DNA of 64,000 nucleotides from a virus (taxonomy: Duplodnaviria > Heunggongvirae > Uroviricota > Caudoviricetes): positions 32,001-96,000 of IMG/VR virus record IMGVR_UViG_2695420521_000002; one strand, given 5' to 3'. A model generated the notes under the pieces. That model saw only the letters and a list, made by a program, of their open reading frames with translations, was not told where the DNA came from and made no database searches. Below are positions 1 through 6,040 of this stretch, piece by piece; positions within the stretch are counted from its first letter, which is position 1; the number at the start of each line of letters is the position of its first letter. The translations under genes were made by a program, and so were the position numbers.

Positions 1-44
1 TTAGGTCCGAAGAGGAGTTTACGTCCAGCTGCGCATAAAAATCA

Positions 45-61
45 AGAATTATTAGAGCAAT
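45..61 (-). promoter_or_regulatory. C1 repressor operator-like 17-mer
   Basis: agaattattagagcaat on + strand; 15/17 to reverse complement of P1 C1 consensus ATTGCTCTAATAAATTT. Confidence 0.6.
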
Positions 62-127
62 AAGTTTTGAGAGAAAAATCCCACTCCACCAGCAAAAAAC
101 TGGATTGTTTTTCATAGTTGTTTGACA

Positions 128-144
128 ATTGCTCTAATAAATTA
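128..144 (+). promoter_or_regulatory. C1 repressor operator-like 17-mer
   Basis: attgctctaataaatta; 16/17 to consensus; faces the 45..61 site, upstream of coi-c1. Confidence 0.65.
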
Positions 145-382
145 TAGTTTTGCCGCCGTTTCGTAATACAACTTGGGATTCACTATTTAATGTGTCTTCA
201 GCGTTGTAGAGCGGCTCAGAAGGAAATGAGCAAACAGGGAAACCTTATACAACGGCATTACAGCTATGCATTGCTCATCTTACACACAGCGCAATGTTGT
301 TAGATTACCCCAGCATGGATCATGGGTGAAACAGTAGGTCAGAGCTCCAGGCTCTGTGTTGTCAATACAGTGAGGCATAATT

Positions 383-592
383 ATGGCTTTCATTCAACCA
401 ACCATCGACGACGTTAGACATTGCTCTAACGCTTTATCTGTAGACCCTGCCGAAACCGACGCAGCCCGCGCCATTGCTGAACACTACTCAAAGATATCCA
501 ATCAGGAGTACCGCATCACCCAAGACGACCTGGATGACCTCACTGACACAATCGAATATCTCATGGCAACTAACCAGTTAGACTCACAATAA
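383..592 (+). CDS. coi: Coi, C1 inactivator
   Basis: 69-aa ORF immediately upstream of c1; size and position match P1 coi. Confidence 0.8.
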   Translation: MAFIQPTIDDVRHCSNALSVDPAETDAARAIAEHYSKISNQEYRITQDDLDDLTDTIEYLMATNQLDSQ

Positions 593-702
593 ATGCACTA
601 ATAAATCTATTATTTTTGTTTGATCCCTCTATAATATAGGTCAGTAATGACCGGTTTTCTCAGCCGGGCGTTATTGACCATGTCAATTCTGGAGGAGGAT
701 CA

Positions 703-1554
703 ATGATAAATTATGTCTACGGCGAACAACTGTACCAGGAGTTCGTCAGCTTCAGGGATCTCTTTCTAAAAAAAGCTGTTGCACGCGCCCAACACGTTGA
801 TACCGCCAGCGACGGTCGTCCTGTACGCCCGGTTGTCGTTCTACCGTTCAAAGAAACGGACAGCATTCAGGCTGAAATTGATAAATGGACTTTAATGGCG
901 CGGGAACTGGAACAGTACCCAGACCTCAATATCCCAAAGACTATTTTATATCCAGTGCCTAACATCCTTCGCGGTGTGCGCAAGGTTACAACTTATCAGA
1001 CAGAAGCTGTGAACAGCGTCAACATGACCGCTGGCCGCATTATTCATCTGATTGATAAGGACATTCGCATCCAAAAAAGCGCGGGGATCAATGAGCACAG
1101 TGCGAAATACATAGAGAACCTGGAAGCAACAAAAGAGCTAATGAGGCAGTACCCGGAGGATGAAAAATTCCGTATGCGTGTACACGGCTTTAGCGAAACA
1201 ATGCTGCGCGTCCACTACATCTCCAGTAGCCCTAACTACAATGATGGTAAATCAGTTAGTTACCATGTACCGCTGTGTGGCGTGTTTATCTGCGATGAAA
1301 CTCTCCGTGATGGAATCATCATCAACGGTGAATTCGAAAAAGCAAAATTTAGCCTTTATGACTCCATAGAACCGATCATCTGCGACCGCTGGCCGCAAGC
1401 AAAAATATATCGCCTGGCAGATATTGAAAATGTAAAAAAACAAATTGCCATCACTCGCGAAGAGAAAAAGGTTAAGTCAGCCGCATCAGTTACGCGCAGC
1501 CGTAAAACCAAGAAGGGGCAGCCAGTAAACGACAACCCCGAAAGCGCGCAATAA
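703..1554 (+). CDS. c1: C1 primary immunity repressor
   Basis: 283-aa ORF recognised as P1 C1 (MINYVYGEQLYQEF...); cognate operators scattered through the window. Confidence 0.9.
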   Translation: MINYVYGEQLYQEFVSFRDLFLKKAVARAQHVDTASDGRPVRPVVVLPFKETDSIQAEIDKWTLMARELEQYPDLNIPKTILYPVPNILRGVRKVTTYQTEAVNSVNMTAGRIIHLIDKDIRIQKSAGINEHSAKYIENLEATKELMRQYPEDEKFRMRVHGFSETMLRVHYISSSPNYNDGKSVSYHVPLCGVFICDETLRDGIIINGEFEKAKFSLYDSIEPIICDRWPQAKIYRLADIENVKKQIAITREEKKVKSAASVTRSRKTKKGQPVNDNPESAQ

Positions 1555-1557
1555 ATT

Positions 1558-1579
1558 ATGCCCGGCATCAACCGGGCAT
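1558..1579. terminator. bidirectional hairpin between convergent c1 and ant
   Basis: 8-bp stem atgcccgg/ccgggcat with 6-nt loop, AT-rich flanks. Confidence 0.5.
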
Positions 1580-1586
1580 TCTTCCA

Positions 1587-2702
1587 TTATTCAGCCGCCA
1601 CCGGTTTTAACAAGCCAGCATCGAGCAGTTTACGCGTCAACCACTGCTGGCCTTTCCCCGTTAATTGAGGCGTCAACCGTATCTGGTAGCCATCTTCATC
1701 ATCCAGCACCACTTCTTTCACCGTGAAATACCCGGCGTTGATGTATTGCTGGAACGGCACATTTTTACGTCCGCCGGACGCAATCAGGATGCCGTTCTCC
1801 CGTAACCAGGCAAACAGCGCGTTTTGCTTAAGTCCAACAACCTTTGCAAAATTTCCAATCAGGATCCCCTTGGCCACTGATACCCGGTCGGCAAAATCGA
1901 CCTTAGGGGCGGCGGCCACCAGCTGCTGATTTAGCTGGTGGGCTTTCTGTTCCAGAAGTTGCTTTTGTTCAGCCAGTTCGGCAGCCAGACGCAGGGCTTC
2001 TGGAAGCGTCTGGGGGATTGTGACCGGTTGCTGTTCTTTTTGTCGGAAGTAGCTGTCTTCCAGTTTTTCAAAGAATGCCCATGCCTGATCGGTTTCGAGC
2101 ATTTTAGCGTGACGGGCAGCGCCGCGTTCTGTCCAGAGAGTGAGTGAGCGGGCTTTGGGTGAGACTGGATTTTGTGAGTAGTTTAAAGCTACCCGCAAAT
2201 TTTTCAGCTCATCGCCAATAACCTTGAAAAAGTGCTTCCCTTCAACAAAGCGCACTTTGTTCTCATGATGATTCTGGCGAATACGGATTGTTTCTGTCCC
2301 ATACCCTTTAGCAAGAGTCTCGGTTGTCACTACACGCACCCCCTGCCACTCCAGAACGGGAATTTCATCAGGCTGATTTTGAGCAACCACCAGCTCCGAT
2401 TCCTGAACTGAAGTTGCATGAATTTTTTCTGATTTAACGTTAGTTGCTTTCATTCTGTGTGCCTCCTTGCATGCTTCGGCTGCGATGGTTGCGTAATTCA
2501 GATGCCCCTGTTCGAGCAGGTATTCGCGGATATCAGACAACAGGATACGGTGAACCGCGTTCTTGTCCTTTCTCCGGTAAAGTTGTTTGGTGATCATGAA
2601 GTAGTTGGCAATAACGCCCGGTATATCCCTGGTACTGATACAGGCAGTGTGCTGTTCAATTGCCTCGATCATCTCTTCACGGGTGACTAATGACGTTCTC
2701 AT
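1587..2702 (-). CDS. ant: antirepressor Ant (full length, KilAC-type C-terminal domain)
   Basis: 371 aa; C-terminal region shared with KilA and with the second ant; internal GGAGG + ATG at Met84 (2451..2453) would give a nested 288-aa product, the Ant1/Ant2 pattern. Confidence 0.75.
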   Translation of the reverse strand: MRTSLVTREEMIEAIEQHTACISTRDIPGVIANYFMITKQLYRRKDKNAVHRILLSDIREYLLEQGHLNYATIAAEACKEAHRMKATNVKSEKIHATSVQESELVVAQNQPDEIPVLEWQGVRVVTTETLAKGYGTETIRIRQNHHENKVRFVEGKHFFKVIGDELKNLRVALNYSQNPVSPKARSLTLWTERGAARHAKMLETDQAWAFFEKLEDSYFRQKEQQPVTIPQTLPEALRLAAELAEQKQLLEQKAHQLNQQLVAAAPKVDFADRVSVAKGILIGNFAKVVGLKQNALFAWLRENGILIASGGRKNVPFQQYINAGYFTVKEVVLDDEDGYQIRLTPQLTGKGQQWLTRKLLDAGLLKPVAAE

Positions 2703-2920
2703 AGCCCCTCCTGAGCCGAAGCGTTAACAGGGAGGCACCAGTAACTGAGAGAATTGCGTGAATCAGTGGAAAAACGGGCAGAGAAAATACATGGGGCGTC
2801 AGGAAGCTGAGAGCGGGCCTCATCTTCTGTTGTTGCGATAACGAAGTGATAGTGACGTTTCTGGCAGGAGTAAAAGCGCCAGATAAATTCAGGGTGAGTT
2901 GGGGTAGGGATAGTAGCCAT
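2699..2920 (-). CDS. icd: Icd-like cell division inhibitor
   Basis: 73 aa, immediately upstream of ant with 4-nt overlap; paralog of 50823..51044. Confidence 0.7.
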   Translation of the reverse strand: MATIPTPTHPEFIWRFYSCQKRHYHFVIATTEDEARSQLPDAPCIFSARFSTDSRNSLSYWCLPVNASAQEGL

Positions 2921-3258
2921 AATGGCAGCCTCCTTTTGCTAACTTAAGGAGCTACCGCGTGAGGTTCCAATCTCAATGGCGGTAGCACTGACTGGGTTGG
3001 AACTACCGGCGCAAAAGGGAACCGGCCTGCCTTTCGGCAGCCCAGCCAGCACTACCATTGATCTCGGAGCTATGTGCTACGTATGGCTGTGCGATGGCAT
3101 GACACAAAAAAAGACGCTTTTGGCGTCTGTGTCGCCTTTTGCATTATCCGGGGTTCCAATCCCGGCACCCGTTTTAATGAGGTGCCTGATAAGCATAAAC
3201 CGAAAATGCCTCAAGGCGCAAGAGGTCAGGTTCAATGTAACACCGGCAGTCAAAAAAC
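2921..3258 (-). ncRNA. leader expected to encode a c4-like antisense repressor RNA (boundaries not determined)
   Basis: non-coding stretch between C1 operator and icd, stem-loops, internal terminator; inferred from P1 immI architecture. Confidence 0.3.
3105..3128 (-). terminator. intrinsic terminator-like hairpin inside the c4-like leader
   Basis: on - strand stem agacgc/gcgtct followed by T7 run; similar GACACAAAAA-hairpin arrangement upstream of the other icd. Confidence 0.45.
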
Positions 3259-3259
3259 A

Positions 3260-3276
3260 CAATTTATTAGAGCAAG
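3260..3276 (-). promoter_or_regulatory. C1 operator-like 17-mer (Op51-like)
   Basis: caatttattagagcaag; 15/17; directly downstream of pacB stop, upstream of c4-like/icd/ant on - strand. Confidence 0.6.
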
Positions 3277-3281
3277 TTTTT

Positions 3282-4766
3282 TTACTCATTAAGCCATGCC
3301 AGAGCTTCATCAACCTGCGCTTCGTCTTCAACGCTAAGCACTTCATCCTGGGGAACATAGTTCGCCAACATAGCGAAACAATATGTATCCCAATGGTCCG
3401 GTGAGTGCAGGTTGAGTTTTTTCTTCATGTCTTCCTTTGACATCACCTTCCATTGACCTGCGGAATTTATCCCTACCGGTATCTTTGATGCTTCCTCTAT
3501 AGTCGCAGCCCCCTTATCAAGCCGCATACGCCCTGATTTTACAGCTTCTGCCGCCTGAATATTCGCGAAAGCGCGCATATCGAAATAAAGGCTTTTATCT
3601 TCGCGGCTGTGCATCTTTTTACCCCAGCGGATACGCTGGACGGTAATACCATAGCGTTCGTACATCAGATCAGCCGTCGATTTCCCCAAGCCATCGCCAT
3701 CAATAGCTATGGTTATGTTCGGGAACCGTTCTGGGTTACATTCTGCGAAAATCTTGGCTGCTAACTGCGTTTCTGTAACGTCTGTGTATTCCAGCATACG
3801 ATAGCTGATTACACGGCGTTTATTTCGCTGGCCGGACACCATCATGATATTGATAACTGACTTATCTCGTCCTGTGCCACCAGCAACGTCAACACATGCA
3901 ACCCAGCCCCATCCTTTGGCAATCTTGACCTTCCGCCGCGTCGCCCGCTCAACCTCATCACGACCAAGAAGAAAGCCATCTTGAGATTTGGGAAATTCAC
4001 CACGTACTTTGATCATGTACATGGGGTTATCACGACCGCCATACTCCGCAAGTTTTGCTCGTATAAATTTTGCATCTACAAGCGGAGATTCTTCACTATT
4101 CAGTATTATCGCAGTAAACAATCCATCAGGATTTCCCGGGCGAATAGCTAGTCTGTGGTGTGAATCGTAGAAATAGCCTGAAGGTCGCGTAGGCTGGGAA
4201 AGAAGCAGAATACGGTTATCCTTACCGGTCAGCGCACCTGTTATCACACTGAATGCTTTATCACTCACACCCGACGCTTCGTCGATGATATACAAGAGAT
4301 GATCGGCGTGTTCACCAGCCAACGCCTCCTCATTTCCGGGGCGACAGGACTTTATCAATATTGTCCAAACACCCTTGCCAGTCACCTCAAAAAAAGACGT
4401 TTCTGTAAGAATGAAATACTTCGACAACCACGGGAATCTGCTAACAGCAGTAGCCCAATTGCTCTTTATGTATTTGAAAATACCATCAAGGACTTGCTGT
4501 CTTTTGTTAGCGACCAGAATGACGCGAGCGCCGGGGAAAAACATGATGAAGAGTATTGCAATGATACTCGTCATATCCGACTTACCAGTACCATGGCCGG
4601 AGGTCACACTTGTCCAACTGCCGTCCTGCTGCGTGGACTCAATGATCTCATCCTGCTGCCAGGTTGGTGTCTTCCCAAACAACACATCAGCGGCCGCAAT
4701 CCAGTCATAACGATATAGCGCCACCAGCTCGCGCCAACGTGGGTCCGTTACGCAACTTCTGGCCAT
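3282..4766 (-). CDS. pacB: terminase large subunit PacB
   Basis: 494 aa, Walker A GHGTGKS, nuclease-like C-terminus; size and position as P1 PacB. Confidence 0.85.
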
Positions 4767-5959
4767 TAATCATCATCCCCGTACAGTTTGCGGGTAACTT
4801 CTTCGTCTTCCTCCTCGTCTTCGTCCAGATCCTGTTCAAGCCATGCTTCGTTTGATATGCCTTCCGCATCGACATCACCATAACCACCTGTATCGACGAT
4901 ATCGGCAATTTCTTCTCTACGATGCTCAATCCACAATGCGGCATCAGCGCGGCGGCTGGCGGCCCGTTCTCGCGCGATTTTATCCAGATCTTCAAGTGAT
5001 GGAGCGCCAGATGCTGTTTGGTTTTCCTCATCATCGGTATTGGTCTTAGGAGCACGCAGATCGGCTTTGATTTGCTCCAGCATCAGGGGCGGCACTTTTC
5101 CGCCATGCGCCTCGATGAATTCAGCAGCTTCCAGCACTGACCAGTTATTTTCACGCTTTCGTTCGTATGCCAGCTTAACAATGCCAGCTTGCCCCATAGA
5201 TAAAGCGTGCTTTTCCGCCTCCCGGCTTTCTTTTCGATAGTTATTCCGGATGCTATAAATGGTGTTGATCAGGCTGCTTATCTGCGCGGAACAGCTGTTT
5301 AGCATGCTCGCGATACGGTATTCAGGCGGAGTACCTTCATCATCGTCTTTTTGCTGATCGCGCATTTCCTGCACCAGGCGAATACACGTATCCCGGGCGT
5401 TCTCCAGCATAAGGAGATGAGAAAGAGACTTTTCAAGAAGAGTGGTTTCCAGAACATCGGCCCCGGACCGACGCAACATAGCGCGCGCGGCCTTCCGCGC
5501 TTCAACGTTATCTATCAGGTAATCGCCAGCTTCGAATTCAAAGCGTTCACCATCATCATCCAGGGTGTCGCGTTCCAGGCGATCACGTAAGGTCCGGTGG
5601 GCGCGGGTGATCACGTCATGATCATCTGAACGATCATTTATGCGCTTATTTTGGCGCTTCGCATTCTCGACTGCGGCACTGATAACGGCATTAACTCTTT
5701 GTTTTTCCGCTATTTCAGCCGCAATGTGATCACCTGCATGTTGATCATTAGAGTGATCAATGATCATGCTTTTTAGTGGCTTCCTGACTGGCTTATTTGG
5801 CTTGCGGCTGTCCGCTGTCCTGGTGTCTTCTTTAAAGGCACGGAGATAACGACGTGCAGTATTAGGGTTAAGATTAAACTCGGCGGCATACTGTGCGATG
5901 GTGTAACCACCATCTCGCGCCAGGCGAGCAAAATTCTTCTTGTGATCGTCCCAGGTCAC
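4766..5959 (-). CDS. pacA: terminase small subunit / pac recognition protein PacA
   Basis: 397 aa; contains the pac hexamer cluster within its coding sequence. Confidence 0.85.
5580..5766. other. pac: pac packaging site: two clusters of TGATCA/G hexamers (Dam sites)
   Basis: hexamers at 5580, 5608, 5619, 5631 and at 5727, 5742, 5754, 5761 flanking a ~90-bp core; matches known P1 pac architecture. Confidence 0.7.
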
Positions 5960-6040
5960 TTATGCTTCCTTTCGTAAAAACTCTTTTTGACGCGAGGGTA
6001 ACGAAAGTCACATGTCAAAAGGCCCGGAACGGGCAAGCAA

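Follow-up and report, generated by a model that had tools for sequence, protein, structure and literature searches.

In phages P1 and P7, the c4 RNA of the immunity region immI represses ant by antisense pairing that blocks the ribosome-binding site of icd (reviewed in PMC12197685). In the Salmonella prophage Gifsy-1, transcripts that read through IsrK are processed to an RNA of about 80 nucleotides (nt) complementary to IsrK, IsrK in trans turns on translation of the antirepressor AnrP, and orf45 overlaps the processed RNA, STnc1160 (PMC4825925). Here we compare these systems with an icd-ant cassette that lies between pacB and c1 in a 64,000-nt window (the whole stretch analysed) of the P1-like phage-plasmid IMGVR_UViG_2695420521_000002, record positions 32,001-96,000. 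Coordinates are positions in this window unless another sequence is named. The most fitting description of the cassette is a variant of immI with an IsrK-type leader, placed in a second slot.

We read it as an additional and self-contained switch of the immI type, governing immunity and antirepressor in this phage-plasmid; its own RNA specificity would make it an independent channel, and we put the probability of this reading at roughly 0.7. The independence follows from a and b recognition sequences that the cassette does not share with the P7-type c4 of the same element.

The cassette in the pacB-c1 junction

The backbone genes c1 (703..1554, plus strand), pacB (3282..4766, minus strand) and pacA are each ~98% identical to P1 and P7. 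In reference P1, just 24 base pairs (bp) separate the pacB stop from the c1 stop, in agreement with the first-pass annotation, which had c1 following pacB directly in P1. When the P1 junction is compared with the window by blastn, homology stops at 3282 (the pacB stop) and resumes at 1553 (the c1 stop), and we therefore delimit the cassette as 1555..3281. The same comparison answers whether reference P1 holds the cassette between pacB and c1: it is absent there, and likewise from P7 at this site. The operator, leader, icd and ant that the annotation had described between convergent c1 and pacB are all present, at or near the positions it gave:

1555..3281, minus strand: whole cassette, 1,727 bp in place of the 24-bp pacB-c1 spacer of reference P1 (blastn)
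3260..3276, minus strand: C1-operator-like site CTTGCTCTAATAAATTG, a 15/17 match to the consensus ATTGCTCTAATAAATTT
3234..3263, minus strand: putative C1-controlled promoter (P51a-like), placed by analogy with the annotated P1 promoter P2c4
3192..3221, minus strand: putative constitutive promoter (P51b/PisrK-like), placed by analogy with P1c4 of P1
3107..3185, minus strand: IsrK-like leader RNA, Rfam RF01394, 62.4 bits (gathering score 50)
3159..3153, minus strand: a1, UUGGAAC, in the loop of IsrK-like hairpin 2
3142..3135, minus strand: b1, GCAAAAGG, in the single-stranded linker of the IsrK-like RNA
3128..3112 plus the T run, minus strand: intrinsic terminator of the IsrK-like RNA, also picked up by a terminator scan
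2975..3062, minus strand: C4-type antisense RNA, Rfam RF01695, 76.7 bits (gathering score 45), E = 3e-13
2939..3058, minus strand: open reading frame (ORF) of 39 amino acids (aa) inside the C4 gene, Pfam PF10554 Phage_ASH, 32.4 bits (cut-off 26)
3018..3011, minus strand: b', CCUUUUGC, in the loop of C4 hairpin 2
3003..2997, minus strand: a', GUUCCAA, in the 3' single-stranded bulge of C4
2970..2964, minus strand: a2, UUGGAAC, downstream of C4, exact complement of a'
2939..2932, minus strand: b2, GCAAAAGG, exact complement of b', overlapping the icd Shine-Dalgarno (SD) sequence AAGGAGG (2935..2929)
2699..2920, minus strand: icd-like gene, 73 aa, 54/73 residues (74%) identical to P1 Icd, NCBIfam NF033153 at 50 bits, PHROG 1426
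1587..2702, minus strand: ant (Ant1-like), 371 aa, Pfam PF10543 (3e-20) and PF03374 (4.7e-32), PHROG 63 'anti-repressor Ant' (1.4e-132)
1587..2453, minus strand: nested Ant2-like frame, 288 aa, from Met84, with AGGAGG at 2467..2462, an 8-nt spacer and ATG at 2453..2451
1558..1579, no strand assigned: GC-rich hairpin in the gap that parts the stops of convergent ant and c1, from the terminator scan (9 pairs, 6 G-C)

This arrangement follows immI of P1 and P7 in the order and spacing of its parts, with an operator, ~115 nt to a1/b1, c4, and a2/b2 with b2 on the icd SD. The two also share a 73-aa icd overlapping ant, an Ant2 start at codon 84, homologous Ant N- and C-termini, and specificity that resides in two short loops. 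They differ in location, since immI of P1 and P7 sits between sim and kilA(-repL) and the cassette between pacB and c1, and in the leader, which in the cassette is of the IsrK type with an intrinsic terminator and matches the P1-type c4-a1b1 model RF03163 only below threshold (23.1 bits at 3198..3145; gathering score 46.7). The recognition sequences are also different, and the central domain of Ant is ORF6N. The cassette thus has most features of P1/P7 immI and departs from them in map position and in a1b1 leader type.

The icd-like gene starts at 2920 behind the SD AAGGAGG, and its stop overlaps the start of ant as ATGA. In Ant itself, residues 1-90 form an Ant1-type N-terminus, followed by ORF6N (residues 116-201) and KilAC (residues 259-360) domains. 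Compared with P1 Ant1, the N-terminal ~90 aa are conserved and the last ~140 aa, including KilAC, are ~90% identical, whereas the middle is unrelated and its ORF6N domain is missing from P1 Ant1. A sequence search of the PDB with the cassette Ant returned no match. The start of P1 ant2 lies 249 nt (83 codons) into ant1, which is the same codon as Met84 of the cassette, and the AGGAGG and ATG found there agree with the nested 371- and 288-aa products, resembling Ant1 and Ant2, that the first-pass annotation had predicted. This SD and ATG motif at codon 84 is present in 67 of 68 homologues, and two nested Ant proteins are predicted for the cassette. The ORFs are intact in about 60 independent cassette copies, most of which have an ant of 370-372 aa.

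Leader RNAs and their recognition alleles

The IsrK-like RNA consists, in order, of hairpin 1, hairpin 2 with a1 in its loop, a single-stranded linker that holds b1, and the intrinsic terminator. Beyond the operator-a1 stretch, the cassette leader is ~25 nt longer than that of P1, which is roughly the size of the added terminator. The first-pass annotation had expected a c4-like RNA at 3105..3258; this interval instead holds the IsrK-like RNA (3185..3107) with a1/b1, and C4 lies at 3062..2975. Its view of the leader as immI-type stands with regard to the presence of a1/b1 sites and of C4 but not with regard to type, which is IsrK (RF01394) and not P1 a1b1. Complementarity among the sites is exact: the 7 nt of a' match both a1 and a2, and the 8 nt of b' match both b1 and b2.

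To place these sites in a comparative frame, we aligned 28 distinct IsrK-type leaders from a set of 79 related IMG/VR loci, D6 and deposited phages. Across the C4 internal helices and the a'-a2 and b'-b2 pairings, 1,176/1,176 pair cells are standard, and 16 pairs show double changes. Nine of these fall among the 27 internal C4 pairs, which are 100% kept and change in a compensatory manner, and seven among the a'-a2 and b'-b2 pairs, which are likewise 100% kept and covary. The a1-a' and b1-b' pairings behave similarly, with 420/420 cells paired and 7 pairs covarying. When the partner is slid by 1-3 columns as a control, only 26-50% of cells pair in the set of C4 helices and a2/b2, and 26-56% over both sets. 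These observations provide strong comparative evidence that C4 would act by pairing with both pairs of sites. The compensatory changes that uphold the internal helices further argue for selection on the folded C4 RNA.

Five IsrK-type haplotypes are found in this alignment, built from the a alleles GUUCCAA, AGGCCAA and GUCUCAA and the b alleles CCUUUUGC, CCUUGGAC and CCUUUGAC, which reassort among haplotypes. The window carries H1 (GUUCCAA/CCUUUUGC), 673R5 carries H2, RCS47 carries H3, and JL22 and D6 carry H5. The interest of the locus lies mainly in this system of specificity alleles exposed by comparison: natural alleles with strict covariation at three sites form a panel for testing how the number and site of base pairs determine antisense specificity.

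The isrK-orf45/STnc1160-anrP locus of Gifsy-1 shares with the cassette an IsrK RNA with a terminator, a C4-like RNA complementary to IsrK, a small ORF inside the latter and an antirepressor downstream. It differs in having no icd between RNA and antirepressor, in belonging to a lambdoid chromosomal prophage and in having no C1 operator. In addition, orf45 is directly coupled to the antirepressor, whereas the 39-aa ORF of the cassette, its counterpart, stops before the icd SD, and it is icd that overlaps ant instead. Equating IsrK with an a1b1 leader plus terminator, and STnc1160/orf45 with c4, links RNAs that recent reviews treat separately.

The Gifsy-1 results also suggest a different account, in which the IsrK-like RNA is an activator that opens an inhibitory structure of the read-through mRNA, the 39-aa ORF is translated, downstream genes follow by coupling, and the C4-like species is a by-product. 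The Rfam isrK match with its terminator fits this account, as do the Phage_ASH match of the ORF in C4, the minimum-free-energy fold of the whole leader, in which a1/b1 pair in cis with a'/b', and the Gifsy-1 experiments that back activation by IsrK in trans. However, a2/b2 covary with a'/b' as strictly as a1/b1 do, and b2 lies on the icd SD, while the activator model has no need for either. The compensatory changes in the C4 helices also speak against it, as do the finding of the Gifsy-1 authors that orf45 is conserved in its nucleotides and variable in its amino acids, and the end of the 39-aa ORF ahead of icd without overlap. We regard this account as quite improbable for the cassette, and note that it is largely compatible with repression by C4 if IsrK is a decoy for C4.

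The 39-aa ORF is also the counterpart of the RefSeq 'ash family protein'. It is probably not an independent protein gene. Hundreds of plasmids carry a RefSeq 'ash family protein' annotation somewhere in the cassette, probably owing to this ORF, and the Phage_ASH family may be the translation of an RNA gene. Three other ORFs cross the leader (3289..3080, 70 aa; 3358..3077, 93 aa; and 2976..3404 on the plus strand, 142 aa). None has a Pfam or NCBIfam match, and we regard all three as non-coding stretches that overlap the RNA genes.

This type of leader is found outside P1 proper. The cassette and the immI-like region (orf82-83) of D6 and D6-like plasmid prophages have IsrK-C4-icd leaders with 93% nucleotide identity. 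In contrast to the cassette, the D6 locus lies near ref/simB/mat, no P1-type operator aligns upstream of it, and its Ant is Rha/Roi/KilA-like. D6 has a second icd-like locus (20806..21177 of D6) that is 86% identical to the P1-type icd region, and a second c4/icd region has been noted in a study of D6-like prophages (PMC6799933). Since D6 carries two icd-like loci, dual modules extend beyond P1 proper. The immunity region of P4 (seqA-CI RNA-seqC) is alike in layout only, with a processed leader RNA that pairs with sites upstream and downstream of itself, and the Gifsy-1 authors call IsrK a homologue of seqA of P4 (PMC4825925). Unlike the cassette, P4 has no icd/ant, and CI terminates transcription of the replication genes prematurely.

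Control of the cassette and the proposed circuit

The operator-like site CTTGCTCTAATAAATTG starts five bases after the pacB stop, and its two mismatches are the outermost positions of the 17-bp consensus. The window as a whole has 15 sites like the C1 operator at ≤3 mismatches, against 0.36 expected from shuffles. The operator core TTGCTCTAAT is retained in nearly all P1-context copies of the cassette. The distance from operator to a1 is 117 nt in the cassette and 115 nt in P1 (Oc4/Op51), with the same orientation along transcription. We take CTTGCTCTAATAAATTG to be a predicted C1 binding site.

Two promoters may read the leader. For the P51a-like candidate, the -35 element ATTGTG/TTGTGT overlaps the 3' end of the operator, and the -10 element TACATT, at 3239..3234, is present in 67/68 IsrK-type leaders. 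The P51b/PisrK-like candidate consists of TTGCGC, an 18-nt spacer and TATGCT, hexamers that are retained in 59-60 of the 68 leaders; its predicted start at ~3185 is position 1 of the Rfam isrK match.

From these elements we propose the following circuit. In a lysogen, the weak constitutive promoter would read the leader, and most transcripts would end at the intrinsic terminator to give a short IsrK-like RNA that carries a1 and b1. Transcripts that read through would be processed to a C4-type RNA of ~80 nt, and free C4 would pair through a'/b' with a2/b2 at the icd ribosome-binding site and leave icd untranslated. Ant1 and Ant2 would then also be unmade, because ant is proposed to be coupled to icd by the ATGA overlap. 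The upstream promoter, which overlaps the C1 operator, would link the module to the main repressor, such that transcription rises when C1 is absent, as in fresh infection or induction. Surplus a1/b1, in cis and in trans, would titrate C4 and permit synthesis of Icd and of the two nested Ant proteins, and Ant would antagonise C1; that it binds and inactivates C1 is predicted from the homology of its termini to P1 Ant1. Between elements, the C4 of the cassette would silence incoming relatives with the same allele, and its Ant would escape residents with other alleles.

Several points weigh against this interpretation. A consensus promoter scan of 1500..3400 detected no promoter in the leader, both proposed promoters being weak matches, and their placement is therefore positional only. 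The covariation rests on five haplotypes, so that independent events are fewer than the cell counts suggest. The Gifsy-1 authors read their homologous system as activation by IsrK through orf45 translation and not as C4-type repression (PMC4825925). Lastly, the middle third of Ant resembles lambdoid antirepressors (CP-1639 ant, 78% nt identity), and since this ORF6N middle is unrelated to P1 Ant1, the target of the cassette Ant could differ from that of P1. On the other side, RCS47, a deposited phage genome, carries both modules annotated intact, in keeping with their coexistence in a working phage.

The nature of the Ant middle leads to the main rival explanation, which would leave the regulatory logic unchanged: the cassette Ant might target the repressor of another element, such as a lambdoid or D6-like prophage in the same cell, and serve cross-induction or competition and not the lysis-lysogeny decision of P1. 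The absence of a central ORF6N domain from P1 Ant1 and the closeness of the ORF6N segment to lambdoid antirepressors are what this explanation would expect. Stx phages have c4/icd-like segments at 77%, D6 pairs the same leader with a Rha/Roi/KilA-like Ant, and the Gifsy-1 homologue AnrP works within a lambdoid prophage. Against it, the N-terminal ~90 aa and the C-terminal ~140 aa of the cassette Ant are P1-Ant-like and the Ant2 start is kept, and the module carries a predicted operator for P1 C1 and, with few exceptions, lies beside c1 in a P1 backbone. We therefore consider a heterologous target unlikely and retain the immI-type switch acting on C1 as the preferred interpretation.

The two ends of the cassette bear on transcription across it. 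The hairpin at 1558..1579 is likely a bidirectional terminator. It is the single hairpin that parts convergent ant and c1, and read-through from a de-repressed cassette would enter c1 in antisense. At the other end, the promoter region begins 5 nt past pacB with no terminator between them, and late pac transcription could enter the cassette.

The kilA-linked module and the distribution of the cassette

The window also contains an immI in the canonical position, which serves as a comparison:

49792..51375, minus strand: kilA-linked (canonical) immI, Rfam RF01695 at 69.6 bits and RF03163 at 55.5 bits
51375..51359, minus strand: C1-operator-like site of this module
51298..51246, minus strand: c4-a1b1 (RF03163), a P1-type leader
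51177..51092, minus strand: C4 (RF01695), of P7-type specificity
51044..50823, minus strand: icd, intact
50205..50203, minus strand: amber codon in ant, codon 208, Ser TCG to TAG by a single C-to-A change

The c4, icd and operator of this module are intact, and its ant is broken, as had been noted at first pass, by one in-frame TAG that ends the protein ahead of the KilAC domain. Codon 208 is TCG in P1 and in RCS47 (98.5% identical). The element thus keeps a P7-type immunity RNA, while its supply of Ant would depend on the second module unless the host has an amber suppressor. If the cassette works as proposed, this would explain why the amber mutation in the classical ant is tolerated. Among the IMG/VR loci listed, we found no association between the cassette and loss of the classical ant, which is mostly intact with or without the cassette, with a few truncations in both groups. 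We further observe that IS1 interrupts the classical immI region of several natural P1-like plasmids (PLSDB matches in two pieces, with an IS1 transposase annotated), which suggests recurrent disruption of this region.

All six specificity sites of the kilA-linked module (a1, b1, a', b', a2 and b2) are identical to those of P7, with UUAGCAG for a and GAUUGUG for b. The corresponding P1 sites are different (UUGACAG and GUUAGUG), and the backbone is equally close to P1 and P7 (~98%). The P7-type recognition sequences of this C4, CUGCUAA/CACAAUC, are to be compared with GUUCCAA/CCUUUUGC in the cassette, so that the two leaders indeed differ in the way the first-pass annotation had suggested when it spoke of c4-like RNAs of different specificity. 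Predicted pairing of each C4 with the targets of the other module leaves 3/5 and 2/5 mismatches at the a/b sites, and the two RNAs should therefore act independently. Beside the cassette icd SD, the stretch GUUAGCA (2943..2937, minus strand) is complementary to UGCUAAC, the a' region in the P7-type C4 of the kilA-linked module. We considered cross-repression through this site and set it aside as probably due to chance, since the full 7-mer occurs only in the allele group of the window and is not kept in other haplotypes.

Specificity also varies at the kilA-linked position. Two a' and five b' alleles combine into eight haplotypes across 79 kilA-linked-type IMG/VR loci. An exact match at all four target sites is seen in 78/79, and the allele pair of reference P1 is rare in this set (4/79). 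The eight haplotypes with matching targets indicate that specificity polymorphism is general in the immI of natural P1 relatives.

These patterns raise a broader possibility, which we advance tentatively and with more doubt than conviction: the immunity of P1-like phage-plasmids may be encoded as a combinatorial RNA barcode. Two to three immI-type modules would reside in each element, in kilA-linked, pacB-c1 and cre-side slots, with specificity given by two reassorting sites (at least five IsrK-type and at least eight P1-type haplotypes are seen). Whether an incoming relative is silenced, or can express Ant and displace or induce the resident, would depend on the set of C4 alleles in the cell, with the IsrK-like RNA as a sponge for its own C4. 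If true, the textbook case of two-allele heteroimmunity between P1 and P7 would widen to a population-wide recognition system.

Other arrangements are seen among the sampled loci. In a third slot, a P1-type c4 leader precedes an Ant 94% identical to the cassette Ant, and in the two cases that could be placed this slot lies a few kilobases (kb) off on the same contig. An IsrK-type leader occupies the kilA-linked slot in some elements. One contig, L011, has a tandem icd-ant-icd-ant of the same allele in the pacB-c1 slot (positions 2501 and 4067 of that contig), which is possibly an assembly artefact.

The novelty that the first-pass annotation implied does not hold, since the cassette is already in deposited genomes, has been noted in the literature and is common in natural P1 relatives. 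It lies at identical junctions in RCS47 (NC_042128, gp039), JL22 and vB_EcoM-673R5, at 90-94% nt identity, and further carriers include pTZ20_1P and many P1-like plasmids (90-97% over the set), in which it is annotated as antirepressor, Icd-like or 'ash family protein'. Venturini et al. (2019; PMC6906374) refer to the insertion at this site. In PLSDB, 321 plasmids cover at least 80% of the cassette, with a best identity of 96.8%. Among 5,426 complete E. coli genomes, window positions 1..6000 are covered to at least 80% in 226; an element without the cassette can reach no more than 71%. Many genes are frameshifted in pNJS001-1, the complete plasmid nearest to the window (98.2% over 6 kb). The RCS47, JL22 and 673R5 cassettes are the same block with the same junctions, and the window copy differs from them by haplotype H1; in RCS47 the other ant is intact, whereas that of the window carries the amber codon. 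What the window adds to a known cassette variant is thus allele H1 together with an amber-inactivated classical ant. As to the operator, the IsrK/C4 circuit and the specificity alleles of this cassette, we found no description in the literature, although one may exist in the original RCS47 paper.

About 60 sampled IMG/VR copies of the cassette lie between pacB and c1, and their pacB is of two kinds, 88% and ~100% identical to the PacB of the window. Inspection by eye revealed no repeats at the ends of the cassette. Since two pacB alleles flank its copies, homologous recombination in the pacB and c1 flanks is sufficient to account for its distribution. At least 16 contigs carry the cassette together with the kilA-linked module.

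A further alternative is that the cassette is a passenger of recombination with no immunity role here, its operator-like site incidental and its genes silent or decaying. P1 and P7 are fully functional without the block, its parts are a mosaic (a D6-like leader, a lambdoid-like middle of ant and a P1-like 3' end of ant), and rearranged or truncated copies exist (L061 and L011). We nevertheless hold this to be highly improbable: the ORFs are intact and the RNAs conserved in the ~60 sampled copies on both pacB backbones, complementarity survives the changes of allele, the operator is conserved, and 226 complete E. coli genomes contain the block.

Teaching on P1 immunity usually relies on the reference genome, which has one immI. 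Many natural P1-like plasmids hold an extra switch of another RNA specificity. In E. coli and Salmonella, natural P1-like plasmids commonly carry resistance genes. Should the module act as we propose, it would affect which P1-like elements coexist, superinfect or induce each other, and hence how they spread.

Elsewhere in the window, three tRNA genes lie on the minus strand (28133..28205, 30051..30123 and 30129..30201), as expected for a P1-like genome.

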